In this document: piece after piece, positions 15,375 through 36,685 of the stretch | How the letters are laid out: the number at the start of each line of letters is the position of its first letter | Position numbering within the stretch: position 1 is the first letter of the stretch | Source of the DNA: Planctomycetota bacterium | Lineage (GTDB): Bacteria > Planctomycetota > MHYJ01 > JACPRB01 | Direction of reading: 5' to 3' | DNA length: 64,000 nucleotides | Assembly: GCA_035644495.1 (NCBI GenBank) | Contig: DASQOM010000064.1 | Coordinates: 15,085-79,084 of the forward strand | Made by a program: the position numbers and the translations under genes | The notes under the pieces: generated by a model | Database searches by the model: none | What the model was told of the DNA's origin: nothing | Seen by the model: the letters and a program-made list of their open reading frames with translations, nothing else

Positions 15375-15415
15375 GGTGATCGAGTACTTCCTGAAGACAT
15401 AAGGAGAACCATTCC

Positions 15416-17494: not shown

Positions 17495-17557
17495 TGATCG
17501 ATGCCGGTACCCCCGCCCCGGCGCGCGGTCCGGGGCGGGGGCCGGCTTCTCTTCGCA

Positions 17558-17971
17558 ATGGCACCGGAAAAAAGTCTCCTGGATCGACTGTCCAGCCCGA
17601 AGGGCGCCGTCCGCAGCGCGGTGGAGAATACCGCCGAGCTGCAGCGGTCGGTGCTGCTCAACCTGCAGCACCTCTTCAACACCCGGGTCGGACACGCCGG
17701 CGCCCAGATGGATCTGGGCGTGCCCTGTCCGAGCGACATCACCTCCGCATCGCCGAACGCCGTCGGCATCATGCTGCGCACCCTCCAGGACTGCATCCGG
17801 AAGTATGAGCCGCGCCTGAAGGACGTGGAGATCTCGCATGTCGTCGGCGACGACGACGTGCTGACCCTCCGGTTCCAGATCACGGCCCGGGTGGCAACGT
17901 CGAAAGACGGCGTGTCGATCAGCTTCGACACGGTCGTCGATCCTTCGGGCCATGTCCGACTTCATCGCTGA
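17558..17971 (+). CDS. tssE: T6SS baseplate subunit TssE (gp25-like)
   Basis: SLLDRLSS...SVLLNLQHLFNTRVGHAGAQMDLGVP. I chose the internal ATG at 17558 (137 aa); the ORF track start is 17501. Confidence 0.8.
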   Translation: MAPEKSLLDRLSSPKGAVRSAVENTAELQRSVLLNLQHLFNTRVGHAGAQMDLGVPCPSDITSASPNAVGIMLRTLQDCIRKYEPRLKDVEISHVVGDDDVLTLRFQITARVATSKDGVSISFDTVVDPSGHVRLHR

Positions 17972-17982
17972 GCGGGCTTCCC

Positions 17983-19722: not shown

Positions 19723-20717
19723 TCCGGAAGCTCCGGACCCAGGGGCCCCAGTTCTCCTTCTTCCAGGCGATGCGCGTGCTGAGGCGCCTCCTGCCCGAGG
19801 CCGCCCCGGTCGGGCATCAAGGCCCCGTCGCAAAGGAAAGCGTCCGCCTGCGCTCGAATCTCTCCTTCGCGTTCGCCACCTCGGACATCACGGAGATCCG
19901 GGACCTTCCGGCCTCCGACGGCATCCCCCGATTCGAGATCACCGCGGCCTTCCTCGGCCTCTACGGCACGGATTCGCCGCTCCCCACGTACTTCACGGAA
20001 CGGCTGCTGCACGACCAGGACGAGGACAGCGTCCAGCGCGAATTCCTCGACCTCTTCCAGCACCGCATCCTCTCGCTCTTCTACCGGGCGTGGGAGAAGT
20101 ACCGCTACGACGCCCAGTTCCGGGACGACGGCTCCGACTTCCTGTCGCGGCGCCTCCTCTCGCTGCTCTGCCTCGACCCCGGCTCGCTGCCGAAGGATCA
20201 CCGGGTGCCCGCGGTGCGGCTGCTCGGATTCGCCGGACTGCTGACCCAGGTCCCGCATTCGGCGGACACGCTGAGGGGCGTGCTGGCGGATTATTTCGAG
20301 GAGATGCCGGTCCACATCGAGCAGTGCGTGGGCCGCTGGCTCCCGATTCCGGAGGACCAGCGCAACCGGCTGGGAGCGATGAATTCGAGGCTCGGGCAGG
20401 ATACCAGCCTGGGGGACCGGGTTTTCGACCGCAGCTGCACCTTCCGGGTGGGTTTCGGGCCGCTGGGTCTGGACGACTTCATGTCGCTCCTGCCCTGCGG
20501 CGACCGGATGCCCGAGGCGAGGGAGCTCGTGGACCTGGTCAACGGCGACGGACTGGACTATGAAATCGAACTCCAGCTGAACGAGGAGGAAATTCCTCCG
20601 CTGCAGCTTTCGGGGCCGACCGCGCGTCTGGGGTGGTCGAGCTGGCTCGGGAAGCGGCCGGGCGCGGAATCCCGCGTCCGATTTTTGGTGAAAGGATGGC
20701 TCCATGGTCGAAGTTAA
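19686..20717 (+). CDS. tssG: T6SS baseplate subunit TssG
   Basis: Conserved N-terminal motif PQFSFFQAMRVLRRL. There is no ATG upstream of the motif, so I propose the GTG at 19686, which overlaps tssF by 37 nt. The first in-frame ATG, at 19770, lies inside the motif. Confidence 0.75.
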   Translation: MVDASRGTDHPLIRKLRTQGPQFSFFQAMRVLRRLLPEAAPVGHQGPVAKESVRLRSNLSFAFATSDITEIRDLPASDGIPRFEITAAFLGLYGTDSPLPTYFTERLLHDQDEDSVQREFLDLFQHRILSLFYRAWEKYRYDAQFRDDGSDFLSRRLLSLLCLDPGSLPKDHRVPAVRLLGFAGLLTQVPHSADTLRGVLADYFEEMPVHIEQCVGRWLPIPEDQRNRLGAMNSRLGQDTSLGDRVFDRSCTFRVGFGPLGLDDFMSLLPCGDRMPEARELVDLVNGDGLDYEIELQLNEEEIPPLQLSGPTARLGWSSWLGKRPGAESRVRFLVKGWLHGRS

Positions 20718-23352
20718 CCTGAAATCCCTGGTCGCCCGGTTGAACCGGTTCTGCACGCGGTCCCTCGAGGCCGCCGCCGGCCTCTGCGTCTCCAGGACCA
20801 ACTACGAGGTTTCGCCGGAGCACCTGCTCCACGCGATGATCGACGATCCTTCGGCCGACCTCCAGACGATCTTCAAGCATTTCGGCATCGAGGCCGGCCG
20901 CGTCCAGAAGGGGCTCATCCAGGTGATCGAGGGCTTCAAGTCGGGCAACCCCGGCCGGCCCACGTTCTCCCCCCTGCTTGTCGAGTGGTTCCAGCAGGCC
21001 TGGCTGGTGGGATCCCTGGACTTCGGCCTGGCCGAAATCCGCTCCGGCATCCTCCTGCAGGCCCTGATGGCCAACCCCACCCGCTTCGGCGCCGACGAGT
21101 GGATGCCGCTTCTCGAGGGCATCAATCGCAGCGACCTCAAGGCGAAATACGCGACCATCATCTCCGCGTCGAGCGAGCGGTCGAACTTCATGGGCTCGGG
21201 CACGGCGTCCCCGTCGGGTTCCTCCCCCGCGGGCGGAGGAAGCCCGGCCGGCGGCGGCGACTCCGCCCTCGCCAAGTATGCGAACAACTTCACCAAGCAG
21301 GCGCGCGAGAACAAGATCGACCCGGTCTTCGGCCGCGACCGCGAAATCCGCCAGATGATCGACATCCTGGCCCGGCGCCGGAAGAACAACCCCATCTGCG
21401 TGGGCGAACCCGGCGTCGGCAAGACGGCCGTCGTGGAAGGCCTGGCCCTGAAAATCATCGAGGGCGACGTTCCCGACGCGCTCAAGAACGTGGAGCTGAT
21501 GGGCCTGGACATGGGCCTCCTGCAGGCCGGCGCCAGCGTCAAGGGCGAGTTCGAGAACCGGCTGAAGGGCGTGATCGAGGAGGTCAAGTCCTCGCCGAAG
21601 CCCATCATCATGTTCATCGACGAGGCCCATACGCTGATCGGCGCGGGCGGACAGGCGGGCGGCGGCGACGCGGCCAACCTGCTCAAGCCGGCCCTCGCGC
21701 GAGGGGAGCTGCGGACCATCGCGGCCACGACCTGGAGCGAGTACAAGAAGTACTTCGAGAAGGACGCCGCGCTCGCACGCCGCTTCCAGCTCGTCAAGCT
21801 CGACGAGCCGGACGAGGAGACCACGATCACCATGCTGCGCGGCCTCCGGGACCGCTACGAGAAGGCGCACGACGTCGTCATCCGCGACGATTCGCTCCAG
21901 GCCGCCGCGCAGCTGGGCAGCCGCTATATCGCGGGCCGGCAGCACCCGGACAAGGGCGTCGACCTCATGGACACCAGCGCGGCCCGGGTCAAGATCGCCC
22001 TCACCACCAAGCCGCCGGAACTGCAGGACCTCGAGCGCCGGATCCAGACGCTGGAGCGCGAGCAGTCGGCCCTGAAACGCGACAAGGCCGGCGGCGCGAA
22101 GGAGCTGGACGAGCGGCTGAACGAAGTGGCCGCGGAAATCGCTTCCACGAAGGTGAAGGTCGGACAGATCACGGAGCGCTGGCAGAAGGAGAAGGCTGCC
22201 GTCGACAAGGTGCTCGACATCCGGAAGAAAATGGACGGGCCGGACGGCAAGAAGGACGCCGAGAAACTCGCCAAGGACCTGGAGGGGGCCCAGGCGGCGC
22301 TGAAGGAGATCCAGGGCAAGGACCCGATCATCTTCGCCGATGTCACCCCCGAAGTGGTCGCGCGCGTCGTGGCCGACTGGACGGGCATCCCGATCGGCAA
22401 GATGGTCCAGGACCAGGCGGCGGCCCTACTCTCGTTCGAAGACAGCCTGCGCAAGCGGATCAAGGGTCAGGATCACGTGAGCTCCATGGTCGGCAAGGGC
22501 ATCCGCGCGGCGAAGGCGGGGCTGAAGAACCCGAAGACGCCGATGGGCGTCTTCCTGTTCGTCGGGCCCTCCGGCGTCGGCAAGACGGAGACGGCGCTCG
22601 GCGTGGCGGACCTGCTGTTCGGCGGCGAACGCTTCCTGACGGTCATCAACATGTCCGAGTTCCAGGAGAAGCACACGGTGTCGCGCCTGATCGGTTCGCC
22701 CCCCGGCTACGTGGGCTACGGCGAGGGCGGCGTGCTCACCGAGGCGGTGCGGCAGAAGCCGTACTCCGTCGTGCTTCTGGACGAATGCGAAAAGGCCGAC
22801 CCGGAGGTGCTCAACCTCTTCTACCAGGTGTTCGACAAGGGCATGCTTTCGGACGGCGAAGGCCGCGAGGTGGACTTCAAGGATACGATCCTCTTCCTGA
22901 CCAGCAACCTCGCGACGGACCTGATCATGCAGAGCGCGGCCGACGGCACGAAGCCGGCCATGGACGACCTGGTGGCGCTGATCCGGCCCGCGCTCTCCAA
23001 GCATTTCAAGCCCGCGCTCCTGGCGCGCATGACGATCATCCCCTTCTATCCCATCGGGCCCGACGCCCTGAAGGAGATCGCCCGTCTCAAGCTGGGCCAG
23101 CTCGAGAAGCGGCTCAAGGAGAACCACCGGATGGCGATGGACATCGATCCCAAGGTGATCGACGCGATTGCCGAGCGCTGCACCGAGGTGGAAACGGGCG
23201 CCCGCAACGTGGACCACATCATCAGCGGAACCCTGCTGCCGAAGATCTCGAGCGAGATCCTCCAGCAGATGTCGACAGGGTCGATGCCGGACAAGATCAC
23301 GGTGACCCTGGACGACAAGGGGGAGTTTGCGTTCACGTTCTCTCGAAAGTAG
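20704..23352 (+). CDS. clpV: ClpV (TssH) AAA+ ATPase
   Basis: 882 aa. Clp N-domain and two AAA+ modules (GEPGVGKTAVVEGLA; GPSGVGKTETALGVAD). Confidence 0.95.
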   Translation: MVEVNLKSLVARLNRFCTRSLEAAAGLCVSRTNYEVSPEHLLHAMIDDPSADLQTIFKHFGIEAGRVQKGLIQVIEGFKSGNPGRPTFSPLLVEWFQQAWLVGSLDFGLAEIRSGILLQALMANPTRFGADEWMPLLEGINRSDLKAKYATIISASSERSNFMGSGTASPSGSSPAGGGSPAGGGDSALAKYANNFTKQARENKIDPVFGRDREIRQMIDILARRRKNNPICVGEPGVGKTAVVEGLALKIIEGDVPDALKNVELMGLDMGLLQAGASVKGEFENRLKGVIEEVKSSPKPIIMFIDEAHTLIGAGGQAGGGDAANLLKPALARGELRTIAATTWSEYKKYFEKDAALARRFQLVKLDEPDEETTITMLRGLRDRYEKAHDVVIRDDSLQAAAQLGSRYIAGRQHPDKGVDLMDTSAARVKIALTTKPPELQDLERRIQTLEREQSALKRDKAGGAKELDERLNEVAAEIASTKVKVGQITERWQKEKAAVDKVLDIRKKMDGPDGKKDAEKLAKDLEGAQAALKEIQGKDPIIFADVTPEVVARVVADWTGIPIGKMVQDQAAALLSFEDSLRKRIKGQDHVSSMVGKGIRAAKAGLKNPKTPMGVFLFVGPSGVGKTETALGVADLLFGGERFLTVINMSEFQEKHTVSRLIGSPPGYVGYGEGGVLTEAVRQKPYSVVLLDECEKADPEVLNLFYQVFDKGMLSDGEGREVDFKDTILFLTSNLATDLIMQSAADGTKPAMDDLVALIRPALSKHFKPALLARMTIIPFYPIGPDALKEIARLKLGQLEKRLKENHRMAMDIDPKVIDAIAERCTEVETGARNVDHIISGTLLPKISSEILQQMSTGSMPDKITVTLDDKGEFAFTFSRK

Positions 23353-23361
23353 GAGACCCCC

Positions 23362-25938
23362 ATGGCACCTGAGAACAAGGCGATCGAATTCGAGTCCAAG
23401 GCCCCGAAGGCCCCCGAGCTGCTCGTGGAGACGCTGACGGGGCGCGAGGAGATTTCGAGGCCGTTCGAGTTCACGGTCGACCTCCTCTCTCGGGACAAGA
23501 GCGCCAAGCTGGAAGAGTTCGTGCGGAACCCCGCGAGCGTCTCGATCAAAGTCCCCATCTCGGGATCGGACGGGAAGCGCCGCATGAAAACGGCGAAGAT
23601 CCACGGCGTGCTGTCGACCTTCGAGCAGCTCGACCAGCTGCACGACTGGACGCGGTACCGCGCCGTCCTCGTCCCCAAGCTGTGGAGGCTGTCCCTGTCG
23701 GTCCAGACCCGGCTCTTCCTGGAGAAGAACGTCCAGGAGATCGTCACCGAGGTCCTCGAGGCGCAGGTCGGGGGCGGCGGCCAGCGGCTCACGAGCGACG
23801 ACTTCGAGTTCCGACTGAAGGGCAGCCCCACGGTCCGAAAGTACGTCGTCCAGTACCAGGAGACCGACTTGGACTTCGTCCACCGCATGCTGGAGTACTG
23901 GGGCATCTACTACTTCTTCGAGCACAAGGAAGACGGCAGCAAGGTCATCTTCGCGAACGACCCCTCCAAGTACCCCGAAATCGCGGAGAAGCCCAAGCTC
24001 CCCTATCGTCCGAACACCGAGGGTCGCAGCCGCGCCGCCGGCGCCGCCGACGCGGAGTCGATGACGGAGGAGGCGGTGATCTCGTTCGTGGCGAAACAGA
24101 ACGGCGTCTCCGCCCAAGTGACCCTGCAGGACTACTACGACGGGACGCCGACCGCGAACATGAAGGTGAGCCAGACCGTCGAAGAGGGCGACGAGGGCGA
24201 GGTGTACCGTTTCGGCGAGCACTACCTGGACGAGGGGGAAGGCGGCCAGATCGCCGAGATCCGTGCCCAGGAAATCCAGTGCCGGCAGAGGATCTTCGAC
24301 ATCCGGACCGACTGCCGGAGCATGCGCGCCGGCATCAAGTTTCCCATGGTCAAGCACTACCGCGACAGCTTCAACAGCGACTACCTGGCGGTCGTGGTCC
24401 GGCACAAGGCCAAGCAGGAGCTGAGCGGAAACGGCGATCCCACCGGGAAGCTGGAGTACGAGAACACGGTCACGGCGATCCCCGCCGCATTCAGTTTCCG
24501 GCCCGAACGGCGGATCCCCTGGCCCCGGATCTCCGGCGTCTTCAACGCGAAGGTGGACTCCGGCGGGCGGTATGCCGAGATCGACGATCAGGGCCGCTAC
24601 AAGCTGAAGTTCCCGATGGACCTGGAGGACCGCGGCGAGGGCAAGGGCTCGCCCGACATCCGCCTCGGAGAGCCGTACGCGGGCCCCGACTACGGGGACC
24701 ACCAGCCGCTGCACAAGGACTGCGAGGTTCTCGTCTCGCACGAGAACGGCGACCCCGACCGTCCGGTCATCGTCGCCGCCGTGCCGAACCCGGACAATGC
24801 GTCCCCGGTGAAGAACTCCAACCAGACGCAGTCCATCATCCGCACCGCGGCCAACAACCAGCTGGTGATGGAGGACGAGGAGGGCGAGGAGTGGATTCAT
24901 CTGTCCACGCCCAACGGGACGACCTTCATCGACATGGGGGCCGACCACAACCACATCACCCATGCTCACGCGGGCATCGTCGCCGGCACCGAGGGCGGCA
25001 TCTCGCTCAATGCGGGAAAGTCCGTCCATATCTCGGCCGGGACCCCGACCGGCGACGGCGGCGTTGAGCAGGGCGCGGCGCTCATGAACAAGATCCAGTC
25101 GTACACGGCGGCGGCGGTCACGGCGCTGTCCGTGGCCTCGGCGGCGGCAGGCGAGCGGGTCGCGACGGGCCACTCGAACTGGGCGGGCCTGGCGGCGGAC
25201 CTGGCGGGAGCCGCGGCGGGCTTCGCCGGCATGGCCCTCAACACGAACTGCTATATGAGCTCCCCCACGAAGGTGGCGGTGCTGGGCGGGGGCGAGGTCA
25301 TGATGGCGGCGGGTGCGGCCCTCGACTGCGTGGCGGCCGGGCAGGCGACCTTCGCCAGCCTGGTGTCCACGCTCGTCGGCTGTGTGAATACGCTCTCGCT
25401 GATCTCGGGACGCCACGCTGAGCTGATCTCGATCGCCGGCAACGTCACCATCGAGGCCAAGAAGGTCGGCAACGTGAAGGTCGAGGCGAAGAAGAACGTC
25501 GTCGTCGAGGCGAAGACCGAGGACATCAAGATGGAGGCCAAGCGGGACTTCCATCTCAAGACGGAAGAGGGCAAGGGCGTCATGGAGTTCCACAAGGACC
25601 TGACGATCGAGTCCAAGGAAGACAAGAAGATCATCCTGAAGGCGGGAGAGAGCTCGATCACCATGGAGGACAGCCAGATCGTCATCCGCGCCAAGAAGAT
25701 CCAGCTGCAGTCCCAGGACGACAAGAACACGGTCACGCTCGTGAACGGCGGCGACGCGACCTACGATCTCGAATTCAAGACCAAGGGCGCCATCACGATG
25801 GATGCGGAGGACAACATCGAGGTCTACACGGACAAGCTCTATTCCGTCATGGCGGAGGATACGGTCGAGTTCAAGTGCAAGAAGCTGGACGAGAAGGCGT
25901 GCGACGCGATCGAGCGCGCGAATTCGAAGGAAGGCTAA
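23362..25938 (+). CDS. vgrG: VgrG (TssI) spike protein with extended C-terminal beta-helical repeats
   Basis: 858 aa. LVETLTGREEISRPFEFTVDLLS is the VgrG N-terminus. The C-terminal ~200 aa are repetitive (VEAKKNVVVEAK...). Confidence 0.9.
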   Translation: MAPENKAIEFESKAPKAPELLVETLTGREEISRPFEFTVDLLSRDKSAKLEEFVRNPASVSIKVPISGSDGKRRMKTAKIHGVLSTFEQLDQLHDWTRYRAVLVPKLWRLSLSVQTRLFLEKNVQEIVTEVLEAQVGGGGQRLTSDDFEFRLKGSPTVRKYVVQYQETDLDFVHRMLEYWGIYYFFEHKEDGSKVIFANDPSKYPEIAEKPKLPYRPNTEGRSRAAGAADAESMTEEAVISFVAKQNGVSAQVTLQDYYDGTPTANMKVSQTVEEGDEGEVYRFGEHYLDEGEGGQIAEIRAQEIQCRQRIFDIRTDCRSMRAGIKFPMVKHYRDSFNSDYLAVVVRHKAKQELSGNGDPTGKLEYENTVTAIPAAFSFRPERRIPWPRISGVFNAKVDSGGRYAEIDDQGRYKLKFPMDLEDRGEGKGSPDIRLGEPYAGPDYGDHQPLHKDCEVLVSHENGDPDRPVIVAAVPNPDNASPVKNSNQTQSIIRTAANNQLVMEDEEGEEWIHLSTPNGTTFIDMGADHNHITHAHAGIVAGTEGGISLNAGKSVHISAGTPTGDGGVEQGAALMNKIQSYTAAAVTALSVASAAAGERVATGHSNWAGLAADLAGAAAGFAGMALNTNCYMSSPTKVAVLGGGEVMMAAGAALDCVAAGQATFASLVSTLVGCVNTLSLISGRHAELISIAGNVTIEAKKVGNVKVEAKKNVVVEAKTEDIKMEAKRDFHLKTEEGKGVMEFHKDLTIESKEDKKIILKAGESSITMEDSQIVIRAKKIQLQSQDDKNTVTLVNGGDATYDLEFKTKGAITMDAEDNIEVYTDKLYSVMAEDTVEFKCKKLDEKACDAIERANSKEG

Positions 25939-25944
25939 GAAGCC

Positions 25945-27981
25945 GTGATTCTCCGGAACGAATCATCCTTCAAGGCAGGCTGGGTGGAATGGCAGATCCG
26001 CCCTCCGAAACCCTCCGTCACGTTCGTGGTGAAGGGCACCTTCGACCTCAAGCACGGAGCGACGGCGACGCTGTCGGCCGAGCCGGCGGATGTTTCCGGA
26101 GACCTGTTCCTCCAGGACGACCTGAAAAAGGCGCTGGTGTACTCCTCCGACCTGGCGCCGTTCAAACCCATGGCGGACGTCTTCGTCTCCGGATGCGCCT
26201 ATGTCCCCGGGAAAGGGACGACGGACGTCCTGCGGGTGTCGTTCCAGGCGGGGCGGGTCTCCAAGTCCCTGGCCGTCATCGGCGACCGGCTCTGGCGCAA
26301 GGGTTTCCTCGGCAGCACGATGACCCCGATCATTCCTTTCCGCAGGATGGACCTCACGTACGACCGGAGCTACGGAGGGGAGGGCTACGCGTGGAATCCG
26401 CTCGGCCGCGGATACGCCGAGGAAGCGGGACCGGACGGCAAACCGGCGCTGCGGCTTCCGAATCTCGAGGACCCCGCGAAGCTCATCAGCAGTCCGTCCG
26501 ATACGCCGGAGCCTGCGGGATTCGGCCCCTTTCCGCTGACCTGGCCGCAGCGGATGTCGAAGTCGGGGACCTATAAGGGCAACTGGCTCAAGGAACGATT
26601 CCCCTGGTTCCCGGACGATTTCAACTGGGGCTTCTTCAATGCCGCACCCCCGGACCAGCAGGCCGCGTACTTCCGCGGGGACGAAAAGCTGCGGTTTGAG
26701 AACCTGCACCGCGATCGACCGATCTTCGAGTCGGCGCTTCCCGGATACCGGGTGCGCTGCTTCTACGCCGAGGTCACCGTCGCCGTCGTCCGGATGGTCG
26801 AAGTCCCGATGGTGCTCGACACCGTCTATGCCGACCTGGAACGCGAAAAGCTGATCCTCGTCTGGCGCGGCGACACGGACCTCGAGCGGCCGAAACTGGC
26901 GCCGGACGACACGATGTTCGTGGTGGCCGACAAGCTGACCGATCCCCCGACGCCGATCGCGGCCATCGAGAAGAGGTTGCGTGCTCTCGTTCCCGGTGCG
27001 CAGCCCGAGCTCCCGCCGCCCGTTCCGGAGCCGTCGCCCCTGCCCGCGGTCGCGGCGCCGTCCGGCCCGCCACGGGAGGAACTTGCCCGGCAGATCTCGG
27101 GCGGCGCCGGGATGACGAACGCGGACCTGACGGGTGCGGATCTCTCGGGGTTCGATCTGTCGGGTCAGGACCTGTCGGGGTGCATCCTGGCGGGAGCGAA
27201 CCTCCGGAAAGCCAATCTTGCGGGCACCAAGCTCGTCGGCGCCGTCCTCGCCGAAGCCGATTTGTCCAGGGCCTCGCTCAAGGGGGCCGACCTGTCGAAA
27301 GCCGATTTCAGCGGCGCGCGCCTGGCCGGAGCCGATCTCTCCGGCGCCAGGCTCGATGGGGCGGTGTTCGAGGAAGCGATGCTGCCGGCCGCGACGCTGA
27401 CCGGGGCGCAGGGCAAGGGAGTCCTGTTCACGGGCGCGAGGCTCCGGCGGGCCGTTCTGAAACAGGCGGTCCTTCCCGGCGCCGTCTTCGCGGACGCCGT
27501 GCTGAACGAAGCCGATCTGTCCGGCGCGATCCTGGCGGGAGCAACGTTTGAAGGCGCGTACGCGAACCCCGTGAAGTTCAACGGGGCCGACCTGACCGCC
27601 GTCAAGGCGTCGGGAGCAAACTTCCGCGCGTCGTCATTCCGGAAGATCGTCGCGCCGAAATCCGTCTGGCAGGGGGCCCGGCTCTACGCGGCGGACTTCT
27701 CCGAGGCCGATCTTTCCGAGGCGGAGTTCAGCGCCGCGTACCTCGAGGAAGCCCGGTTCAACATGGCGACGCTCCGCCGCGCCAAGCTCATGGAAGCGGT
27801 GATGCGCCACGCCGAGCTCATCCGCTGCGACCTGTTCGCGGCGGGCCTCTCAAAGGCGGACCTCACCGGCGCCAATTTCAGCGAATCGAATCTGTTCAAG
27901 GCGGACCTGCTGAAGTCGCCCCGCGAAGGGGCGAAGTTCCAGAACGCCAACGTCCAGAGAACCTGGTTGGTCTTCAAGTGA
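25945..27981 (+). CDS. DUF2169-like domain fused to pentapeptide-repeat domain (VgrG-proximal adaptor-like protein)
   Basis: 678 aa. N-terminal ~350 aa globular domain; I assign it to DUF2169 from memory of its architecture and its position after vgrG. C-terminal ~320 aa are canonical A(D/N)LxG pentapeptide repeats (ADLSGFDLSGQDLSGCILAGANLRKANLAG...). Confidence 0.65.
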   Translation: MILRNESSFKAGWVEWQIRPPKPSVTFVVKGTFDLKHGATATLSAEPADVSGDLFLQDDLKKALVYSSDLAPFKPMADVFVSGCAYVPGKGTTDVLRVSFQAGRVSKSLAVIGDRLWRKGFLGSTMTPIIPFRRMDLTYDRSYGGEGYAWNPLGRGYAEEAGPDGKPALRLPNLEDPAKLISSPSDTPEPAGFGPFPLTWPQRMSKSGTYKGNWLKERFPWFPDDFNWGFFNAAPPDQQAAYFRGDEKLRFENLHRDRPIFESALPGYRVRCFYAEVTVAVVRMVEVPMVLDTVYADLEREKLILVWRGDTDLERPKLAPDDTMFVVADKLTDPPTPIAAIEKRLRALVPGAQPELPPPVPEPSPLPAVAAPSGPPREELARQISGGAGMTNADLTGADLSGFDLSGQDLSGCILAGANLRKANLAGTKLVGAVLAEADLSRASLKGADLSKADFSGARLAGADLSGARLDGAVFEEAMLPAATLTGAQGKGVLFTGARLRRAVLKQAVLPGAVFADAVLNEADLSGAILAGATFEGAYANPVKFNGADLTAVKASGANFRASSFRKIVAPKSVWQGARLYAADFSEADLSEAEFSAAYLEEARFNMATLRRAKLMEAVMRHAELIRCDLFAAGLSKADLTGANFSESNLFKADLLKSPREGAKFQNANVQRTWLVFK

Positions 27982-28565
27982 AGGAGCAGCCCATGGCCCA
28001 CCCCATCGTCGATCACGAGCTGAGCAGCACGGGCGGGGCCCGCGTGGGGATCCGTCCGACGCCGGCCGGCGAGATCCTGGAGACCCGGGACTCCCGCGGC
28101 CAGCTCGTCTTCGAATTCAACGCCGCCTCGGGCCGCGCCGTCCTGCACTTCGGCGGCAGCGGCTTGAGACTCCAGGCGGTCGACGGGCGGGTCGAGATCG
28201 TCTCCGAGTCGACCATCGCCATCCGCTCGGAGGGCGGCATCGAGCTGGAGGGGGCCAGGGGGGTGCGGCTGGCCTGCGGGCCCCATGCCGCGACGGTGAC
28301 CCCGGAAGGAATCGACGTCGACGCGGCGGCAGCCCGCGTCCGCGTGGACGACGCCCGGGTGTCCTGCGGCAAGCTCGAGCAGAAGGTGGACCGCGTCCTG
28401 CTCTGGGCCAAGGACGTCTATCACCGGATCGAAGGGCTGTTGCACACGCGCGCGGGGAGGGTGCGGACGGAGGCCGAGCGTGATCACCTGGTGCAGGCGG
28501 AGCGGGCGCGGCTGCAGGCTGAAGGCGACGTCCATGTCCAGGGCCGTACGGTCAACCTAGGGTGA
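27978..28565 (+). CDS. DUF3540-like T6SS accessory protein (weak assignment)
   Basis: 195 aa, overlapping the previous stop. Size and position (DUF2169 - pentapeptide - ~200 aa protein - PAAR) match the recurring DUF2169/DUF3540 neighbourhood. I recognise no motif. Confidence 0.45.
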   Translation: MKEQPMAHPIVDHELSSTGGARVGIRPTPAGEILETRDSRGQLVFEFNAASGRAVLHFGGSGLRLQAVDGRVEIVSESTIAIRSEGGIELEGARGVRLACGPHAATVTPEGIDVDAAAARVRVDDARVSCGKLEQKVDRVLLWAKDVYHRIEGLLHTRAGRVRTEAERDHLVQAERARLQAEGDVHVQGRTVNLG

Positions 28566-28569
28566 TGCC

Positions 28570-29565
28570 ATGTTTCCTGTAGCCACCAACGGGGGCGGCC
28601 AGTTCATGGCCTTCCCCGACGTCTGCAAGACGCCGACCCCGGCGGGACCGGTCCCGCTTCCCTATCCCAATATGGGCCAGGGATCCGACGGAGAGGGGTC
28701 GAAGAAGGTGAAGATCGACAACAAGGAAACCCTGCGCAAGGGGGACAGCGTCCGCATGACGGCCGGCGACGAGGCGGGCTCGGTGGGCGGCGTCGTCTCG
28801 AGCAAGATCAAGGGGAAGGTCGACATCGTCATGGGCTGGCCTTCGGTGAAGGCGGAGGGCAAGGAGGTCGCCCATCTGCTGGCCTCGTCCGACCACAACG
28901 GGTCCAGCCCGGGCAATACTGCGGTGCTGGGCAAGTACATCGCGCCCGGTCAGACCAAAGTAAAGGTCATGAAAGTCAAGGGGGTCCGGCGCCGGGTTCA
29001 CAAGAAGGTGAGGAAGTATCATCCCTCGCGCGATGCTTCCGGGCAGGATCCGGCGTTCTCCCCGACGCCCCAGATGAAGAAGGACGCCAAAACGGCGGCG
29101 AAATCCACCGACGCCACAAAGAAGAAGAAGGCCAGCGAGGATCTCGGCGACGGCGGGGCCCAGAACGCGGGCGAGGAGATGGCGAAGCGGGACTATCAGG
29201 GGCTGGCCAAGCCTCCTCAGAGTCCCACCGCCGACAATCCCATATCCTTCGGCGGCCGGAGCACGACGGACGTGGTCACGTTCTGCAAGGACGGGACCAT
29301 CCTGATCTTCGAGGCGAAGGGCGGCGCATCGCCGCTCGGCACCGCCATGGCCGGCACCAAGCGCATGCAGCAGGGGACGCCCAAGTATCTCGACGAGATC
29401 CTCGATCGCATGGAGAAGGCGGGCGGCGACAAGAAGGCGGTTGCGGACAAGATCAAGGCACAGATGCAGGCGGACCCGAGCAAGGTGCGGTACTGCGAGG
29501 CCCGCACCGAATACGACGCCAATGGCGATCCGGCCGACACGGTGATCAAAGAGTTCGACCCGTAG
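28570..29565 (+). CDS. PAAR-like (DUF4150) T6SS effector with C-terminal PD-(D/E)xK nuclease-like domain
   Basis: N-terminus FMAFPDVCKTPTPAGPVPLPYPN is the DUF4150/PAAR-like signature. It is followed by a Lys-rich linker (KKKKASEDLGDGG). The C-terminal domain has TTDVVTFCKDGTILIFEAKGG, a D-x10-E-x-K restriction-endonuclease-fold motif. Confidence 0.7.
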   Translation: MFPVATNGGGQFMAFPDVCKTPTPAGPVPLPYPNMGQGSDGEGSKKVKIDNKETLRKGDSVRMTAGDEAGSVGGVVSSKIKGKVDIVMGWPSVKAEGKEVAHLLASSDHNGSSPGNTAVLGKYIAPGQTKVKVMKVKGVRRRVHKKVRKYHPSRDASGQDPAFSPTPQMKKDAKTAAKSTDATKKKKASEDLGDGGAQNAGEEMAKRDYQGLAKPPQSPTADNPISFGGRSTTDVVTFCKDGTILIFEAKGGASPLGTAMAGTKRMQQGTPKYLDEILDRMEKAGGDKKAVADKIKAQMQADPSKVRYCEARTEYDANGDPADTVIKEFDP

Positions 29566-29581
29566 GGAGAGAGAGGACGCC

Positions 29582-30355
29582 ATGCCCAGGACACTCGGAC
29601 ACAAGTTCAAGCCGGACAGGTTCCAGGATACCTACGATTTCTGGACCCGTCAGCAGGGGGTGCTGTATCCCGGCCGCGCCGAAGCCCGGAAGAAGCAGAA
29701 CGTCAAGCTGTTCTGGGGCATCTTCGAAAACGGACTGAAGCTGTTCCGGATCGGCTACCTGCTGGACGAGCCGTTTCCCTCGCTGATCAAGAAGGCCCGC
29801 GAGGCCCTGCCGGAACTGATTCCGGCGATGGAGCTGGGATATGCGTTCGAGCCCGACAAGATCCAGGATGCGCTGTGCCTGGCGCTGACCGTCCGTCTTC
29901 CCAAGATGATCGACTGGTTGGCCGATCTGCCCCGCGACGCCTATACGGATCCCAGCGTCGAGGTCAGCGGGATCGCCTTTCTCATCACGGAGGCGATCCA
30001 GGCCGGCGCGAAGGGGAACCGGAAGGCGTTTGACGCGGCCGTGAAGAAACTCCGGCCGGCGATGGCTCCCAAGAAGCTCCTGGTGAGCCCGCGCCAGGAG
30101 ACCGCCATCTACGCTCCGATCGTGGACCTTCTGGAAGCCGTCTCCGCGGGCGACCCGGCGCAATTCGAGAAGGCCTGGAAGGCCAAGGGCGACGCGTGGA
30201 AGAAGACCTACTCGAGAGCGAGCGAGGCCGGGAACTTCGACGGGATCCTCGACATCACCGCGCTTGGCATTGCCCGTATCGCCGAAGGGTTCGGCATGAA
30301 GATTCCGGCCACCCATCCCTATGCGCCGCTCGATATTCTCGGAGCCGCCAAGTGA
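29582..30355 (+). CDS. Hypothetical protein; candidate immunity protein for the upstream effector
   Basis: 257-aa ORF 16 nt downstream of the effector. No recognisable domain. Position typical of a cognate immunity gene. Confidence 0.4.
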   Translation: MPRTLGHKFKPDRFQDTYDFWTRQQGVLYPGRAEARKKQNVKLFWGIFENGLKLFRIGYLLDEPFPSLIKKAREALPELIPAMELGYAFEPDKIQDALCLALTVRLPKMIDWLADLPRDAYTDPSVEVSGIAFLITEAIQAGAKGNRKAFDAAVKKLRPAMAPKKLLVSPRQETAIYAPIVDLLEAVSAGDPAQFEKAWKAKGDAWKKTYSRASEAGNFDGILDITALGIARIAEGFGMKIPATHPYAPLDILGAAK

Positions 30356-30948
30356 GCTCGAGTCTCCGCTTCTTCTCGGTAAGCTGGAAGGAACTCTCCG
30401 GCGCCATCGGCAGCCACCATCAGGGGCTGTATCGGAAGCTCCTGAAGATCGCGGAACCGATCTTCGAGGAGGTCTACGAGGCGTCGAGTTTCCGGGGAGG
30501 TCCTGACCTCGCCGAAGGCATCGACCGCTGGATCCAGGGGGAGGTCGTGGAAGAAGGACAGACCGGGGTCCGGGTCCAGTCGCTCGGCGACGCGCTCGGC
30601 TTCCTCTCGCTGATCCAGTATTTCGGAAAGGAAGTGGGGAGCCTCGAGCATACCTCTTCATCGTTCGACCAATTCGAGAGATTCCTGCTGGGTCCGGCGA
30701 CGACGGCGCTCCGGCCGCCGGTCCCCCTGACGCAGCTCCGGTCGCGTCCGATCCTGGGGGTGGAGAGCGGCCAGGACGCGCTCTGGGGAGGGCTCAGCCG
30801 GGAAGAGCTGTCGGCGCTTGCGTCGCCGCTTTCGGGTGATCCGCCCCAACCCCCCGACCAAGACGACGCCCTCTGGATGGTGCCGCTCTGGGATTCGCTC
30901 GGCTCCGCCCTCGATCTCGGCAAGGACCTGATAACGATTTACGCCTGA
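30352..30948 (+). CDS. Hypothetical protein (second candidate immunity/accessory gene)
   Basis: GTG start overlapping the upstream stop (GTGA), with no ATG available. 198 aa. Protein-like composition. Confidence 0.35.
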   Translation: MSSSLRFFSVSWKELSGAIGSHHQGLYRKLLKIAEPIFEEVYEASSFRGGPDLAEGIDRWIQGEVVEEGQTGVRVQSLGDALGFLSLIQYFGKEVGSLEHTSSSFDQFERFLLGPATTALRPPVPLTQLRSRPILGVESGQDALWGGLSREELSALASPLSGDPPQPPDQDDALWMVPLWDSLGSALDLGKDLITIYA

Positions 30949-31029
30949 CGCAGCCCGTTCTTTGTGGCTGCAACCGGGGTCCGACGCTAAGATGAGCCCG
31001 CTCGAGACTGGGAAGGTGGGAATGTCGCG

Positions 31030-32949
31030 ATGATCCTCAAGACCCGGGAGTCCGTCCTGGAGCGGGTCCGCGGCGGACTCCCCTTCAAGGACGTCATCGT
31101 CCTGGACGCCGATCTCTCCAAGGCCGACCTCCGGAAAGCCAACTTCAGCGAGGGACACTTCCAGAACGTGCTGTTCGAGGGCACCGACCTGACCGGCGCG
31201 CTCTTCGTTTCCGCGGACCTCCTCAACGTCGCCCTCCGCGGGGCCAATCTCACGGGCGCGGATCTGACGGGCGTCCAGCTGACGGGAACCGATATTTCCG
31301 GAACCACCTTGACCCGCGCCAGCCTCGGAAACCTCGACCTGGCCGGCGTCCTCCTCGGCAGCAAGAATCTCTCCCAGACCCAGTGGGCCTCCTCCAACCT
31401 GCGCAGCGCCGACCTCTCCGGATCCGACCTGACCGGCGCCCAGTTCCGCGGCACCTCGCTTCGCGCCGCGCGGCTCGTCGGCGTGAAGTTCGGGGGCGCC
31501 ACGATCACCAACGCCGACTTCACGGGCGCCGACCTTTCCGACGCCGTCCTCGACCGGTCAACGTTCAGCCAGGTGGACTTCACGAGCGCCAACGCCCCGG
31601 GCGCGACCTGGGCCGGGTCGGTCCTGGACCAGGTGAATTTCCAGGGGGCCGATCTGCACGGAGCCAGATCTTTCCCCAAGGCGCCGAAGGACTGCGTGTT
31701 CAATCGCGTCGACCTGTCCGAGTCCGACCTCTCGGGCTTCGACGCCCCGAAGGTCCGGATGCGGGGCGCGAACCTGACGAGCTGCAACCTGGAGGGGAGC
31801 AAGCTTGCGGGTGCGGATCTCGTCGAGTCCCGCATGATCGGCGCCGGGCTGACGGGGGCGGACCTGTCGGGCGCGGACCTCAGCCGCGCCGTGCTCGAGG
31901 GCGTCCGCCTGAAGAAGGCGAATCTGAAGGGTGCCACGCTGATGAAGGTCCGTCTCAACCGGGCGATCCTCGAGGACGCCGTGCTCGACGAGGCCAAGCT
32001 CTATGAGACGGACCTCCGCGAGGCGAACGTTCCCTCGATCCCCGGCGGACTCCTCGGCGGGGCAAATATGGCCGGCCTCGATCTGGCCGGCCGCGATTTT
32101 TCCGGCGCCGACCTGTCCAAGGTGGATCTCCGGGGGGCGCGGCTGACCAAGTCGAACCTGTCCGGCACCGACCTGACCGAGGCCATCCTCGCCGGCGCGG
32201 TCCTGGACGGCGCGGACCTCCAGCAGGCGATGCTGTCCGGCGTCGACCTGACCCGTGTCAAGCTGGCCGGCGCGAACCTGCTCGGCGCGCAGATCGAGCG
32301 CTGCAAGCTCGACGACGCCGACCTGAGCGGCTGCAAGCTCGAGGGCGCGGACCTCAAGGGGCTCGACCTCAAACGCACGAAGTTCAAGGGCGCCGCCCTG
32401 GTGAAATGCGCGATGGCCGGGTCCGATCTCACCGGCGCCGACCTGTCGGGCTGCGATCTCACCGATGCCGACTTCACCGGCGCGAAGCTGGGCGGGGCGA
32501 ACCTGAGCCATGCCAGCCTCAAGGGATGCACCTTCGAAGCGGCCGACCTGATGCAGGCCCGCTTTGAGGAGGCCAGCGGCGTCTCCACGTTCTTCGGGCA
32601 GGCGAAGCTGTCCAAGTCGAATTTCGTCCGCGCCAGGCTCAAGTCGGCCTGCTTCCAGGGCGCCCAGCTGGACGGGGCGGATTTCTCCGGGGTGGCCATG
32701 GCGGAAGGCTGGTTCGTCGAGGCCGATGTCCGCTCGGCGAGGTTTCTCAACGCCCAGCTGACCTTCGCCGACTTTTCCCACGCCAAGATCCAGCAGGCCG
32801 ACTTTTCGGGCGCGGACCTCTCCGGCGCCAATCTGCACGCGACCCTGGAGTCCGAAGCCCGGTTCCAGGGAGCCAACCTGAAACAGGTCCGGCATACGGA
32901 CCCTGAGCTACTGGATGCCGAGTTATGGAAACCACTGAAGCCAAAGTAG
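31030..32949 (+). CDS. Pentapeptide-repeat protein (639 aa)
   Basis: Almost the entire protein is tandem A(D/N)LxG pentapeptide repeats (GADLTGVQLTGTDISG...GADLSGANLHA). Confidence 0.85.
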   Translation: MILKTRESVLERVRGGLPFKDVIVLDADLSKADLRKANFSEGHFQNVLFEGTDLTGALFVSADLLNVALRGANLTGADLTGVQLTGTDISGTTLTRASLGNLDLAGVLLGSKNLSQTQWASSNLRSADLSGSDLTGAQFRGTSLRAARLVGVKFGGATITNADFTGADLSDAVLDRSTFSQVDFTSANAPGATWAGSVLDQVNFQGADLHGARSFPKAPKDCVFNRVDLSESDLSGFDAPKVRMRGANLTSCNLEGSKLAGADLVESRMIGAGLTGADLSGADLSRAVLEGVRLKKANLKGATLMKVRLNRAILEDAVLDEAKLYETDLREANVPSIPGGLLGGANMAGLDLAGRDFSGADLSKVDLRGARLTKSNLSGTDLTEAILAGAVLDGADLQQAMLSGVDLTRVKLAGANLLGAQIERCKLDDADLSGCKLEGADLKGLDLKRTKFKGAALVKCAMAGSDLTGADLSGCDLTDADFTGAKLGGANLSHASLKGCTFEAADLMQARFEEASGVSTFFGQAKLSKSNFVRARLKSACFQGAQLDGADFSGVAMAEGWFVEADVRSARFLNAQLTFADFSHAKIQQADFSGADLSGANLHATLESEARFQGANLKQVRHTDPELLDAELWKPLKPK

Positions 32950-33015: not shown

Positions 33016-33046
33016 TTGACAGCCCCGAGCGAAGCCGTGAATAATG
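33016..33046 (+). promoter_or_regulatory. Sigma70-type promoter (TTGACA-N17-TGaATAAT) upstream of the metallopeptidase gene
   Basis: A perfect -35 TTGACA at 33016-33021, a 17-18 bp spacer, and an extended -10-like GTGAATAAT, in an AT-rich patch of an otherwise ~70% GC sequence. Confidence 0.35.
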
Positions 33047-33155
33047 AAAACCTCCGGGCCACGAGGAAGGGAAAATCCTGCTGTAGGATGAATAATATAG
33101 GCCGGCCGGGGCTGGGGCCCCGAGACACCGGTCGAGAGATTGAGGAGGCCGCGAC

Positions 33156-33719
33156 ATGTTCAAAGTGAAGGGCGAAGGTCTGTCACCCGCCGAAACGACG
33201 GCGATCACCAACATCTGCTCGAGAGTCGCGGCGGCTGCCGCGCAGGCGGCCAACATGAAGGCCGGGAATCGAGGGAAGTGGTTCGGCACCATGGCCAACT
33301 CGGACGTTCTGCTCGGCAATCTGCGGACGATGGACAAGTACCTCAACAAGCAGTGCACGCAGCTCACGTTCGTCCGAAAGGCCACCGGGCAGATCATCGA
33401 CTCCGTGAACGCCGAGGATTCCGATTACGGCCAGGTGCTGCCGAACGTCTTCTCGACGACGGTGGGATTCAAGCAGACCACGAAGCACGTCAGCTCCGGC
33501 CTGCGGATCTTCGCGATGAACGAGCTGATCCGGGCGATCGCGACGAACGACATCAAGGAGCAGCTCAACTACGTCTATCACGAGGTCAGCCACAAGGTGC
33601 TGGACACCATGGATTATAAGTACGGGAAGCCGAAGTGCAAGGCCCTCGCCATCAACAACCCCGGCCGCGCGGTGAAGAACGCCGACAACTACGGGTACTT
33701 CATCTGCGAGGTGGCGTAG
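33156..33719 (+). CDS. Small zinc metallopeptidase, M35/aspzincin-like (HEVSH + TMDYKYG)
   Basis: 187 aa. HEVSHKVLDTMDYKYG matches HExxH followed closely by the GTxDxxYG aspzincin motif. No signal peptide. Own promoter. Confidence 0.5.
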   Translation: MFKVKGEGLSPAETTAITNICSRVAAAAAQAANMKAGNRGKWFGTMANSDVLLGNLRTMDKYLNKQCTQLTFVRKATGQIIDSVNAEDSDYGQVLPNVFSTTVGFKQTTKHVSSGLRIFAMNELIRAIATNDIKEQLNYVYHEVSHKVLDTMDYKYGKPKCKALAINNPGRAVKNADNYGYFICEVA

Positions 33720-33736
33720 TTCCGGCCTGACCGGAT

Positions 33737-36685
33737 TCAGGGCCCTGGCTGACGGAGTTTTCCACGGACCGAGTCGGCCAGGGCCTTGAAGGCCGCCTCC
33801 CCCGCCTTCTGCTGCTCGAGAACCACGACGAAGGGACCCCGTCTCAGGATTCTGAAGTGGGCGGGATTCCGGCCCTGCTTTTTGCGCGTCTCTTCGAGCA
33901 GCGTCCCCCAGGCCGTCGCCATCGTCTCTTCCTTCAGCTCGTAGACGTCGATCTTCGTCTCGCTCGGATCGACCATCGCCTCCCACCAGCCCTTGACCTC
34001 CGACGAGGTCGAGCGGCCCAGGCGGGGATTCGGGCTGAGCACGGGCGCGCGGTCGAGGTAAAGCGAGCCCTTGGGAAGATCCGCGGTACGGAGCGCAAAG
34101 TCCTCCACGGAGGGAGGCCCGAGGCGCATCTTCCTGCGGAGCACCGGCTCCAGGGCCTCGAGCACCGGCCAGGCGCTCTCCGGCCCGCTCACCCACGCGA
34201 GCACCGTGTCCTTGATGAGGACGATGTCGCCGGGGTGCGAGGGCTGCTCCCGCCGCAGCTTCTCCACCAGGCCGTAGTCGAAGGTCTGCTGGAACTTGCA
34301 GGCGAGCGACACGTCCTTCCCCTTGATCGTGCAGGCGTAGTTCCTCCGGTCGATCGCCTCGTCGACGATCTCAAATCCGGCGGGCAGGTCCGACGGCTGG
34401 AGCCTCGCGGACATCAGCTGGAGCGGCCGCGGATGGTTGCGGTCCCAGCCGAACTTCTCGCGGACAAAATTCTCGATCGCGTCGAGGGATTCGTCGTCGG
34501 GAGCCTCCACGCCCCAGCACAGGCCGTGGCCGTCCGTCCCCGCTCCGCGCTTCGACAGCGCGTCATTGAACGCGCTGCGGTGCGTGCTGTCCGCGGGCTG
34601 GAAGATCACGATCGACCCGTGCGGCTTGAGGACGGCCCGCCAGGCGCGCCGGACCTCCGACGCCTGCACGCCCTTGATGGGGATCTGTTTGAGGATGGCG
34701 CGGACGTCGGTCTCCACGGAGTCGAAGCGGTATCCGTCGGGAAGCTCCGCTTCCACGGGGACGACGCTGTCGAAGGTGTAGTCGTCCGTGCCCATGCAGA
34801 TCCGGAGTTTTCCGGCCACCTTCTCGTACGCGCCGATCTGGCGGCCGCGGAGCGCCATCGCCAGGATCGTCCGGCCCGCCACGCAGGACTCCGTCCGCGT
34901 CGCGTCCTTGCGGATGGCCTGGAGGATGGAGGCCTCCTCGGTCTTCGCGCGCGCGGCCGTGTCGTAGAGGGCCGCCACGACGACGATGCCCCCCTTCTGA
35001 TCCGCGTGGTACATCGACTGCTCCGAACCCGCGACCAGCCCCGTCTTCGACAGGACGGAAGGGTTGAGCGATTCGATCATCCAGTCCTCGGGGAGCTCGC
35101 CCTTCTCCACCGTCAGGCTGTCCAGCGGCACGTCGGGCACCAGGGCGGGAAGCCCCAGTTTCTTCTGGAGCATCTCGACGAGCTGCGCGAACGCGTAGCG
35201 GTTCTGCGGGTGGATGGCCCAGGCCAGGACCAGCAGCGGGCCCTTCCGGTGCGTCCACTTGTGCTTCAGCGGCTCGAGCCCGAGGAACGTCTTCTCGATG
35301 CGCTCCGCCGCGGGCGTCTCGATCGCGGCGAAGGCGACCGACCAGCGCCACCAGGCGGCCACGTACCCCTGCTTGATCTCCGAGCGGTCGATGTTCTGAA
35401 GCCCGACGCCGTCGAGATTCTTGATCAGGATGTCGATGTCGGCCGGATCCTTGACCGGCATGGGGTTGCGCGGGAACTCGGTGCCGGTCTGCTGGTAAAC
35501 AAAGCCGCCCGGCCGCTCCTCGGGGGAGAAGTAGAGCTTCGTGAGGTCCACCGCTTCCACGGGAGCGTCGACCTTGACCACCGCCGGCGGCGTCGGGGGC
35601 ACGATCGCGGGGGGCGTCGCCGCCGGAGGGCTCTTGAGGAGGGCGACGCCCGCGAGGAGGACGGCCGCCGCGGTGACCACGCCCATGGCGATCATCGGGC
35701 GATTGGCGCTCTTCTTCGCAGGCTTGGGGGTGATCACCGTGGGCATATAAGACTCGGCCGAAGTCCCCACGGTGGTCGCCTTCGTCACGGCGTCCTTGAT
35801 GTCGCCGGCGTTCTGATATCGCCGGTCGGGCGACTTTTCCAGCGCTTTGAGGACGACTTCGTCGAGGCGGACGTCGATCTTGACCATCTTGGAGGGCATC
35901 TCGAAGCGGCCGATGGGCAGCTCGCCGGTCAGCATCTCGTAGAGGACGACGCCGATGGCATAGATGTCGGCGCGGTGGTCGACGGACTTCGGGTTCTCGA
36001 CCTGCTCCGGCGCCATATAGTGCGGGGTGCCCATGACCATGTTGGTCATGGTCAGGTTGACCGGGGCGTCGGCGCCGACGAGCTTGGCCAGACCGAAGTC
36101 GGCGATCTTCACGCGGCCGCGCTTGTCGAGGAGGATGTTCTCCGGCTTGATGTCGCGATGGACGACGCCTTCGCCGTGGGCATATTCGAGGGCGTCGCAG
36201 ATCTGCGGGACGATCTTCAGCCCCTGCTCCGGGGTGAGCTTCCGGTCGCGGAGGATCTGGCGGAGGTTGGTGCCGTCGATGAACTCCATCGCGAAGAAGA
36301 AGAAGCCGCCCTCGGCGCCGAAGTCGTAGACGGCGACGATGTTGGGGTGGCTGAGGGAGCCGAGCGCCTTGGCCTCGCGGATGAAGCGGTTCTGGAAATC
36401 GGGGTCGAGGGCCAGCTTCAGGGGGAGGATCTTGAGGGCGACCATGCGGTCGAGCGCGGGCTGGCGCGCCTTATAGACGACGCCCATGCCGCCCCTGCCC
36501 AGCAGTTCGAGGATCTCCAGCCCGTGGAACGACTGGCCGGTCTTGAGAGGCAGATCTTCAGGCGGGGCGGTGGGTTCCGTCGACTTCTGCGCGAACCCCG
36601 CCATGCACTTGGAGCAGAGGTCCCCGGAAAAGAGGCTGCCGCAGGTGGAGCATTTTTTCATGGTATTCATATCCCCACCCTGCAT
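33737..36685 (-). CDS. Membrane Ser/Thr protein kinase with N-terminal Cys4 zinc ribbon and large extracytoplasmic C-terminal domain
   Basis: 982 aa. [16 protein letters not shown]; kinase motifs [38 protein letters not shown] helix near residue 330, then ~620 aa of unknown C-terminal domain. Confidence 0.9.

Follow-up and report, generated by a model that had tools for sequence, protein, structure and literature searches.

What is the gene of a zinc protease, apparently lacking any signal for export, doing at the edge of a type VI secretion system (T6SS) cluster? The question is raised by a stretch of 64,000 nucleotides (nt) from a Planctomycetota bacterium (contig DASQOM010000064.1 of assembly GCA_035644495.1), called the window below and supplying all coordinates. 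The gene is referred to here as the M35 gene and its product as the M35 protein. The most likely answer, to which a probability of about 0.5 is given for the statement as a whole, is that the product is an M35 zinc endopeptidase, expressed from its own promoter and used by the T6SS as a cargo effector.

The gene is real, and this is firmly established. Calling of open reading frames (ORFs) in the 64-kb window gives a frame of 564 nt that encodes 187 residues (about 20.5 kDa), exactly as described, together with its HEVSH and TMDYKYG motifs, in a first-pass annotation made from the sequence alone. The coding sequence and its translation start are as follows.

33156..33719, plus strand: coding sequence of the M35 gene (187-residue zinc endopeptidase, aspzincin), recognised from the ORF, the G+C content at third codon positions (GC3), PF14521, the AlphaFold model, Foldseek and the NCBI name.
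33143..33149, plus strand: Shine-Dalgarno sequence GAGGAGG, 6 nt before the ATG.

An N-terminal extension of the frame is ruled out by an in-frame TGA at 33141-33143, a stop 12 nt 5' of the ATG, and most homologues have a GGAGG-type site at the equivalent position. The GC3 of 0.90 lies within the range of the surrounding genes (0.84-0.96), which marks the frame as coding sequence adapted to the host, not as an insert of foreign composition. The first-pass suggestion of an acquired gene has no support from composition, and no phage relatives were found: a PHROGs search gave no match and a scan of IMG/VR no relatives. A protein identical to the product is present in NCBI, on a contig of 131.7 kb, under the name "M35 family metallo-endopeptidase". 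The M35 assignment is correct, but it is already made automatically in public annotation.

Membership in the M35/aspzincin family is firmly established. A Pfam scan finds PF14521 (Aspzincin_M35) with E = 1e-12 and 49.2 bits (gathering score 30), so that the homology proposed in the first-pass annotation is borne out by the profile search as well as by sequence and fold matches in the PDB. PF14521 is the only Pfam domain above its cut-off, its alignment covering residues 120-183 (profile positions 78-141) only, and an NCBIfam search gave no match. The PDB sequence matches are GfMEP (1g12; E = 2.5e-5 with the single sequence in phmmer, 1e-8 with the family profile) and AsaP1 (2x3a).

AlphaFold2, supplied with 25 family sequences, gives a model with a mean predicted local distance difference test score (pLDDT) of 85.7 and a predicted template modelling score (pTM) of 0.82, the loop 98-112 being the only poorly predicted part. 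With the predicted structure as query, Foldseek matches AsaP1 (2x3c, E = 5e-7), GfMEP (1g12, E = 2e-6, template modelling (TM) score 0.72 normalised to GfMEP), deuterolysin (1eb6, E = 3e-4) and Candida Pra1 (9n47, E = 4.5e-4) in the PDB, with alignments that span about 190-210 columns. The next match has an E value of 0.3 and is not meaningful. Given a fold match over the whole chain and a length of 187 residues, the protein is a complete M35 catalytic domain. It does not deserve the name of "mini" metallopeptidase that it had first received, being longer than mature GfMEP (167 residues) and deuterolysin (177 residues).

The active-site motifs lie in the C-terminal part of the chain.

33579..33593, plus strand: HEVSH codons, with two zinc ligands and the catalytic base (H142, E143, H146), aligned to H117, E118 and H121 of GfMEP.
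33606..33626, plus strand: TMDYKYG codons (residues 151-157), with the third zinc ligand D153 and with Y156, aligned to D130 and Y133 of GfMEP.
33681..33704, plus strand: NADNYGYF codons (residues 176-183), the C-terminal M35 motif by alignment to GfMEP.

As judged from these alignments and their conservation, the active site is firmly established to be intact. No substitution of H142, E143, H146, D153 or Y156 is seen in 25 close relatives, and of 87 wider relatives 86 keep all the catalytic residues. Zinc would be bound by H142, H146 and D153, with E143 acting as the general base and Y156 assisting. The two motifs noticed in the first pass stand, the gap between them being four residues (KVLD) and not three. 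The second motif reads DTMDYKYG in its context, the first Gly of the GTxDxxYG pattern being replaced by Asp.

The residues D154 and E157 reportedly belong to the S1' pocket of GfMEP. D177 of the M35 protein aligns with D154, in a column that holds Asp in 74 and Glu in 10 of the 87 relatives, and G180 aligns with E157, in a column that is Gly in 65 of them. Since G180 replaces E157, specificity for lysine should not be assumed: the Lys-specific subfamily has two acidic S1' residues, of which D177 is kept and G180 is not acidic.

Two cysteines, C67 and C161, are also invariant in the 25 close relatives, C161 lying 8 residues after the aspartate ligand. An obligatory C67-C161 disulfide switch, closing to activate the enzyme only outside the cytoplasm, was considered, but covariation gave it no support: 59 of the 87 wider relatives have both cysteines, 17 have C161 only, 9 have C67 only and 2 have neither.

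The Foldseek match to Pra1 suggests another use of the fold. The protein could be a secreted, non-toxic zinc-binding or zinc-scavenging protein, like the zincophores Pra1 and AspF2 or the metal-acquisition proteins that are exported by some T6SSs. Such proteins need no immunity gene, and none is found here; moreover, there is a weak match to the HRXXH profile PF13933 (E = 0.058). However, with 13.5 bits this match stays below the cut-off of 27 and does not place the protein in that family, true proteases are matched far better than Pra1, and the invariant catalytic Glu (HExxH, not HRxxH) and Y156 point to catalysis. A zinc-scavenging role is therefore very improbable.

The N-terminus reads MFKVKGEGLSPAETT. 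Inspection of its hydropathy found nothing like a Sec or Tat signal, the Kyte-Doolittle maximum being 1.06 (11-residue window, first 40 residues). Residues 3-7 are confidently predicted to form a beta-strand of the fold in the AlphaFold2 model, so the absence of such a signal, as claimed in the first-pass annotation, is upheld. The N-termini of the family align at Met1. Met1 falls where the mature enzyme begins, and the absence of both a signal peptide and a propeptide is firmly established. The pre-pro architecture, which is typical of characterised M35 members and not defining for the fold family, is absent. The protein would fold in the cytoplasm without an inhibitory propeptide. The lack of a classical export signal, set against the fact that the characterised M35 members all act outside the cell, argues for an effector.

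It is also firmly established that the M35 gene follows the last gene of a complete T6SS cluster.

2924..32949, plus strand: complete T6SS cluster, identified by Pfam scans, upstream of the M35 gene and on the same strand.

The gene order is FHA, TssJ, TssK, TssL, TssM, TssA, TssB, TssC, Hcp, TssE, TssF, TssG and ClpV, followed by VgrG, a DUF2169-pentapeptide gene, DUF3540, a PAAR-like (DUF4150) toxin, Imm49 and a 639-residue pentapeptide-repeat protein. The last of these ends at 32949, and the M35 gene starts 206 nt downstream. Within the cluster, Hcp is encoded at 17000-17494, VgrG at 23362-25938 and the PAAR-like protein at 28570-29565.

To see whether this location recurs, about 18 independent neighbourhoods were examined, the window included, many of them on short contigs, which limits the reach of the comparison. 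The edge of a T6SS cluster is found in three of the approximately 18: the window, L010 and L042. In L010/L012/L022 a 65%-identical homologue is convergent with tssK (found by tblastn; PF05936, E = 6e-67), and the TssK of L010 is only 33% identical to that of the window. In L042, a contig of 640 kb, the homologue P0179 (30% identical, N-extended) follows a TssF-TssG-ClpV-VgrG-PAAR series and two small ORFs, and the T6SS proteins are 26-51% identical to their counterparts in the window. The associations are regarded as independent because the cluster arrangements differ. By our own rough estimate, the background chance of a gene adjoining a T6SS cluster is at most about 1%. Three T6SS-edge contexts out of 18 are strongly enriched over this background, and the link is plainly not obligatory.

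The remaining contexts, about 15 in number, lack T6SS genes and weigh against the effector, as do the points on immunity and loading given further below. They include the following loci.

L001 (Gemmatimonadaceae): neighbours PadR/MacB and Mla/Lpt, no T6SS genes.
L003: neighbours dnaE and a TIR-domain protein, no T6SS genes.
L005: neighbour a sigma factor, no T6SS genes.
L036: neighbours ATP-binding cassette (ABC) transporters, no T6SS genes.
L037: neighbour DAHP synthase, no T6SS genes.
L041: neighbour an FG-GAP protein, no T6SS genes.
L044: no T6SS genes.
L046, L047 and L049: a conserved slot with a divergent S41 Ctp peptidase on one side and a SurA/PpiD-like prolyl isomerase on the other, no T6SS genes.
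Seven distant proteobacterial and other loci: metabolic neighbours, no T6SS genes.

L046, L047 and L049 are three related metagenome contigs that carry N-extended relatives. In L003, the homologue P0005 (63% identical) is directly followed by the gene of the TIR_2-domain protein, at 6364-7287.

These contexts also speak for an M35 peptidase that has no link to the T6SS, its gene being a stand-alone, horizontally mobile one that lies next to the cluster incidentally, and its product a specific cytoplasmic protease of the producer or one released by lysis or by an unknown route. About 15 of the 18 independent contexts have neither T6SS genes nor any other partner in common. The gene is monocistronic, with its own promoter, and has no immunity gene. 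Mobility is suggested by protein identities of 55-78% between sequences from Planctomycetota, from Gemmatimonadaceae and from unclassified metagenome contigs. However, a position at the T6SS edge, reached three times in differently arranged and distantly related clusters, is hard to explain as coincidence. For cytoplasmic housekeeping, a protease that is constitutively folded and has no propeptide would be unusual, and the protein matches no defence-system or phage family. A gene unconnected with secretion is on balance doubtful, though it deserves to be kept in view.

In the T6SS-effector reading, the gene would have a sigma-70-type promoter to itself at the far end of the cluster, and its product of approximately 20.5 kDa would be loaded as a cargo effector. 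Small proteins are suited to loading into Hcp, and the size of this one fits. Because neither the M35 gene nor its relatives have a conserved immunity-like partner, the target would probably be something that the producer lacks, such as a eukaryotic protein or some other non-self substrate.

The same lack of a partner counts against the effector. No immunity gene adjoins the M35 gene, the convergent kinase gene on its 3' side being only 17 nt away, and no partner ORF is common to the loci of the relatives. All published M35-type T6SS toxins, on the other hand, have immunity proteins. Searches of Pfam and NCBIfam found no known T6SS marker or adaptor domain in the protein, and no marker of the MIX, FIX, PAAR, DUF4123, DUF1795 or DUF2345 type was found either within the gene or next to it; DUF2169 and DUF3540, encoded upstream, accompany the PAAR-like toxin and not the M35 gene. 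Furthermore, VgrG2b does not appear among the sequence-profile or Foldseek matches in the PDB, for which reason the clade looks closer to the classical M35 enzymes than to VgrG2b. A conserved partner or immunity gene was sought as a candidate and rejected, since the neighbours differ in every lineage examined.

The proposal of a T6SS cargo effector, made in the first-pass annotation, thus gains from the recurrent T6SS-edge location and from the published PF14521 toxins of T6SSs, and loses by the presence of most homologues elsewhere and by the missing immunity gene. The idea is plausible and somewhat strengthened, though unproven. Proteolytic activity, secretion route and target are here all predictions.

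A gene for a Ser/Thr kinase (33737-36685, minus strand) converges on the M35 gene and ends 17 nt after its stop. Its product combines a kinase domain with a single transmembrane stretch and some 630 residues of C-terminal domain, a topology resembling that of PpkA. It may belong functionally to the T6SS locus, given the FHA protein in the cluster and the kinase that also follows the M35-like gene in L042 (11464-15486, directly after it). If the kinase is part of the locus, the M35 gene lies inside the cluster and not at its edge.

This arrangement gives rise to a third alternative, in which the protein is a producer-side accessory protease of the T6SS (Tag-type). Its substrate might be an effector, an adaptor, or some structural or regulatory component; the adjacent PpkA-like kinase and FHA may take part, and the protease itself would not be delivered. 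A protease that stays in the cytoplasm needs no immunity gene. In both the window and L042 the gene has the VgrG/PAAR module on one side and that of a membrane Ser/Thr kinase on the other, and an FHA protein is encoded in the T6SS cluster. However, most relatives have no T6SS genes nearby, the kinase is convergent in the window and co-directional in L042, and we know of no such accessory protease in T6SS biology. An accessory role is improbable.

The expression of the gene as a unit of its own is supported by a promoter-like site upstream.

33016..33021, plus strand: -35-like hexamer TTGACA, belonging to the one sigma-70-like match of 11/12 in the window.
33040..33045, plus strand: -10-like hexamer AATAAT, 18 nt after the -35 hexamer, with TG immediately 5' at 33038-39.

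The complete site, TTGACA-N18-AATAAT, matches the consensus at 11 of 12 positions and is the best sigma-70-like match in the 64-kb window. The consensus promoter described in the first-pass annotation therefore stands as to its hexamers, with a spacer of 18 nt instead of 17. The TG abuts the AATAAT hexamer directly, for which reason the site is not a canonical extended -10.

Scanning both strands of the whole window gives one site with at least 11/12 matches, against approximately 0.03 expected from first-order Markov simulations, and five with at least 10/12, against 0.3 expected. The other four, at 10/12, are at 2878, 52608 and 55175 on the plus strand and at 36748 on the minus strand; site 2878 precedes the first gene of the T6SS operon and site 36748 the kinase gene. 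All five are at, or just 5' of, gene starts. The host thus appears to use this type of promoter, and the site of the M35 gene is credible. An own promoter for the gene is a credible prediction, supported in silico. The promoter is not conserved among the homologues, of whose loci only L003 has a comparable 11/12 site.

Transcription would start near 33052, giving a 5' untranslated region (UTR) of about 105 nt. The word "leaderless", applied to the gene in the first pass, is thus apt for the lack of a signal peptide only and not for the mRNA. Independent expression, also proposed at first, is supported in silico by the promoter; no terminator was predicted between 32949 and 33016, so that read-through from the T6SS operon into the M35 gene is possible as well. 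GC content dips locally around the promoter, to 0.505 at 32900-33099, where the mean of the window is 0.66. The dip, called a rare AT-rich patch in the first pass, is genuine and similar to those of other intergenic regions, which fall to 0.535-0.54.

The octamer TGAATAAT occurs twice, 51 nt apart, at 33038-33045, where it overlaps the -10 hexamer, and at 33089-33096 in the predicted 5' UTR. The repeat could be a second -10 element or the site of a regulator. A structured 5' UTR was rejected (fold z-score 0.51), and an Rfam search of the locus gave matches at chance level only, with no family for the 5' UTR. A repeat follows the gene on its 3' side.

33736..33790, no strand assigned: inverted repeat of 18 nt, 89% complementary, with a 19-nt loop, inside the 3' end of the kinase gene and directly after the M35 stop.

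The inverted repeat is a possible transcript-end hairpin, a function suggested by its position; it has no T-run.

The M35 protein belongs to a small clade, of some 87 representative clusters. In a database of 5.8 billion proteins the matches fall into 26 clusters at 90% identity, all of them full-length and of 181-226 residues, and one of the clusters is from a Gemmatimonadaceae metagenome-assembled genome (MAG; 61% identity). A profile search of 1.84 billion representatives gave 1655 matches at E<1e-3. Most of these are canonical M35 proteins aligned over the C-terminal motifs only, and the 87 wider relatives are the retrieved proteins that align across the profile, including its clade-specific N-terminal half. 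By a crude hydropathy test, a hydrophobic N-terminal window is found in none of the 87 clade members and in 15 of 45 longer canonical M35 proteins.

Some members of the clade have an N-terminal helical extension of 100-150 residues and a C-terminal "...KFGG" tail. A Pfam search of the N-terminal extensions gave no match. The N-extended proteins P0035, P0038, P0044, P0027 and P0030 share a C-terminal tail that reads ...KFGG or ...LFG. PADLOC defence models matched neither the M35 protein nor its neighbours, and a tblastn search of plasmids gave three partial C-terminal matches only, all to ordinary M35 genes. Tandem arrays of M35-like genes are present in L018 and L021 (uncultured Psychromonas MAG, OY821666.1), with 9 and 6 tblastn matches, respectively, to the C-terminal motif region, spread over about 10 kb in each locus.

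As a tentative extension, this clade of bare M35 proteases, free of propeptides and of immunity genes, may consist of T6SS cargo effectors directed against targets that the producers lack, such as those of eukaryotic grazers or hosts, and may have spread horizontally among Planctomycetota, Gemmatimonadota and other environmental bacteria.

Several other features of the T6SS cluster and its surroundings were observed. Two extra genes for sheath-like proteins, at 3-1226 and 1084-2805 on the minus strand, are divergent from the T6SS operon and are present besides the canonical TssB and TssC. One of the two products is VipB-like, and the other, of 573 residues, is a fused VipA+VipB-like protein. 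In the regions 28570-30355 and 30196-31030, the PAAR-like (DUF4150) toxin has a C-terminal extension of about 220 residues without a Pfam match and is followed by Imm49, and no gene is assigned to the stretch 30355-31030. Two further cluster proteins, of 717 and 307 residues (2924-5077 and 12283-13206), gave no Pfam match. Beyond the kinase gene there is an extracytoplasmic function (ECF)-type sigma factor, followed by a cytochrome oxidase operon.

If the link to the T6SS is true, the M35 protein would be the smallest known so far among the M35-type T6SS protease effectors, a class recognised recently. It would also lack an immunity partner, a sign that its target is not bacterial or is in some other way non-self. 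A single-domain enzyme of 20 kDa would then provide an easy handle for finding the substrates of such proteases. To our knowledge, T6SS function in Planctomycetota is essentially unexplored, and this would be the first T6SS effector proposed for the phylum. If the link is false, the gene is that of an ordinary peptidase, already annotated automatically. The protein also raises the question of how an aspzincin can fold, and be harmless, in the cytoplasm without a propeptide, which in other members of the M35 family is both chaperone and inhibitor.

Among the closest known enzymes is GfMEP from Grifola frondosa (1G12, MEROPS M35), which shares the fold over the whole chain. Both proteins have HExxH, the Asp ligand, the Tyr of DxxYG, an N-terminal WFG and a C-terminal NADNxxYF. 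The M35 protein is near to mature GfMEP in size, at an identity of about 22%, and has 7 residues from the second His to the Asp ligand where GfMEP has 9. GfMEP is made with a signal peptide and a propeptide, and the characterised M35 enzymes are pre-pro-proteins. In contrast, the M35 protein has neither.

The best structural match is AsaP1 of Aeromonas salmonicida (2X3A/2X3C), a bacterial toxin of the M35 family that shares the active-site motifs. AsaP1 is a 343-residue precursor that is exported classically and has its catalytic domain at the C-terminus (match at 285-336), whereas the M35 protein is the catalytic domain alone. The zincophores Pra1 and AspF2 (PF13933) share the M35-like fold, with the weak PF13933 match extending over residues 153-186. 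They are non-proteases with HRxxH, unlike the M35 protein with its HEVSH and invariant catalytic Glu.

A search of the library of papers available found none that joins the word "aspzincin" to type VI secretion, and none on a bare, immunity-less M35 clade. Nevertheless, PF14521-type toxins of T6SSs have been described. The C-terminal domain of VgrG2b (Pseudomonas aeruginosa PA0262) and the stand-alone M35-PAR (E. coli PAR, AKO63_2955) depend on a DUF2345 adaptor for loading and are countered by an immunity protein (PMC10673891). T6EC12 of Methylocaldum szegediense is a PF14521 cargo effector with HELSH at 301-305 and D312, and has been modelled in the Hcp lumen in a preprint of September 2026 (bioRxiv 10.64898/2026.09.28.754971). 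Like VgrG2b, M35-PAR and T6EC12, the M35 protein has the PF14521-type HExxH...D arrangement, no signal peptide and a gene near vgrG or other T6SS genes. Those toxins have a VgrG fusion, a DUF2345 adaptor or an extra N-terminal domain (with HExxH at residue 301), and all are accompanied by an adjacent immunity protein. The M35 protein is a bare catalytic domain without an immunity gene, which sets it apart from T6EC12 and M35-PAR as these have been described. With T6EC12 it shares the spacing of 7 residues between the second His and the Asp ligand (H305 to D312).

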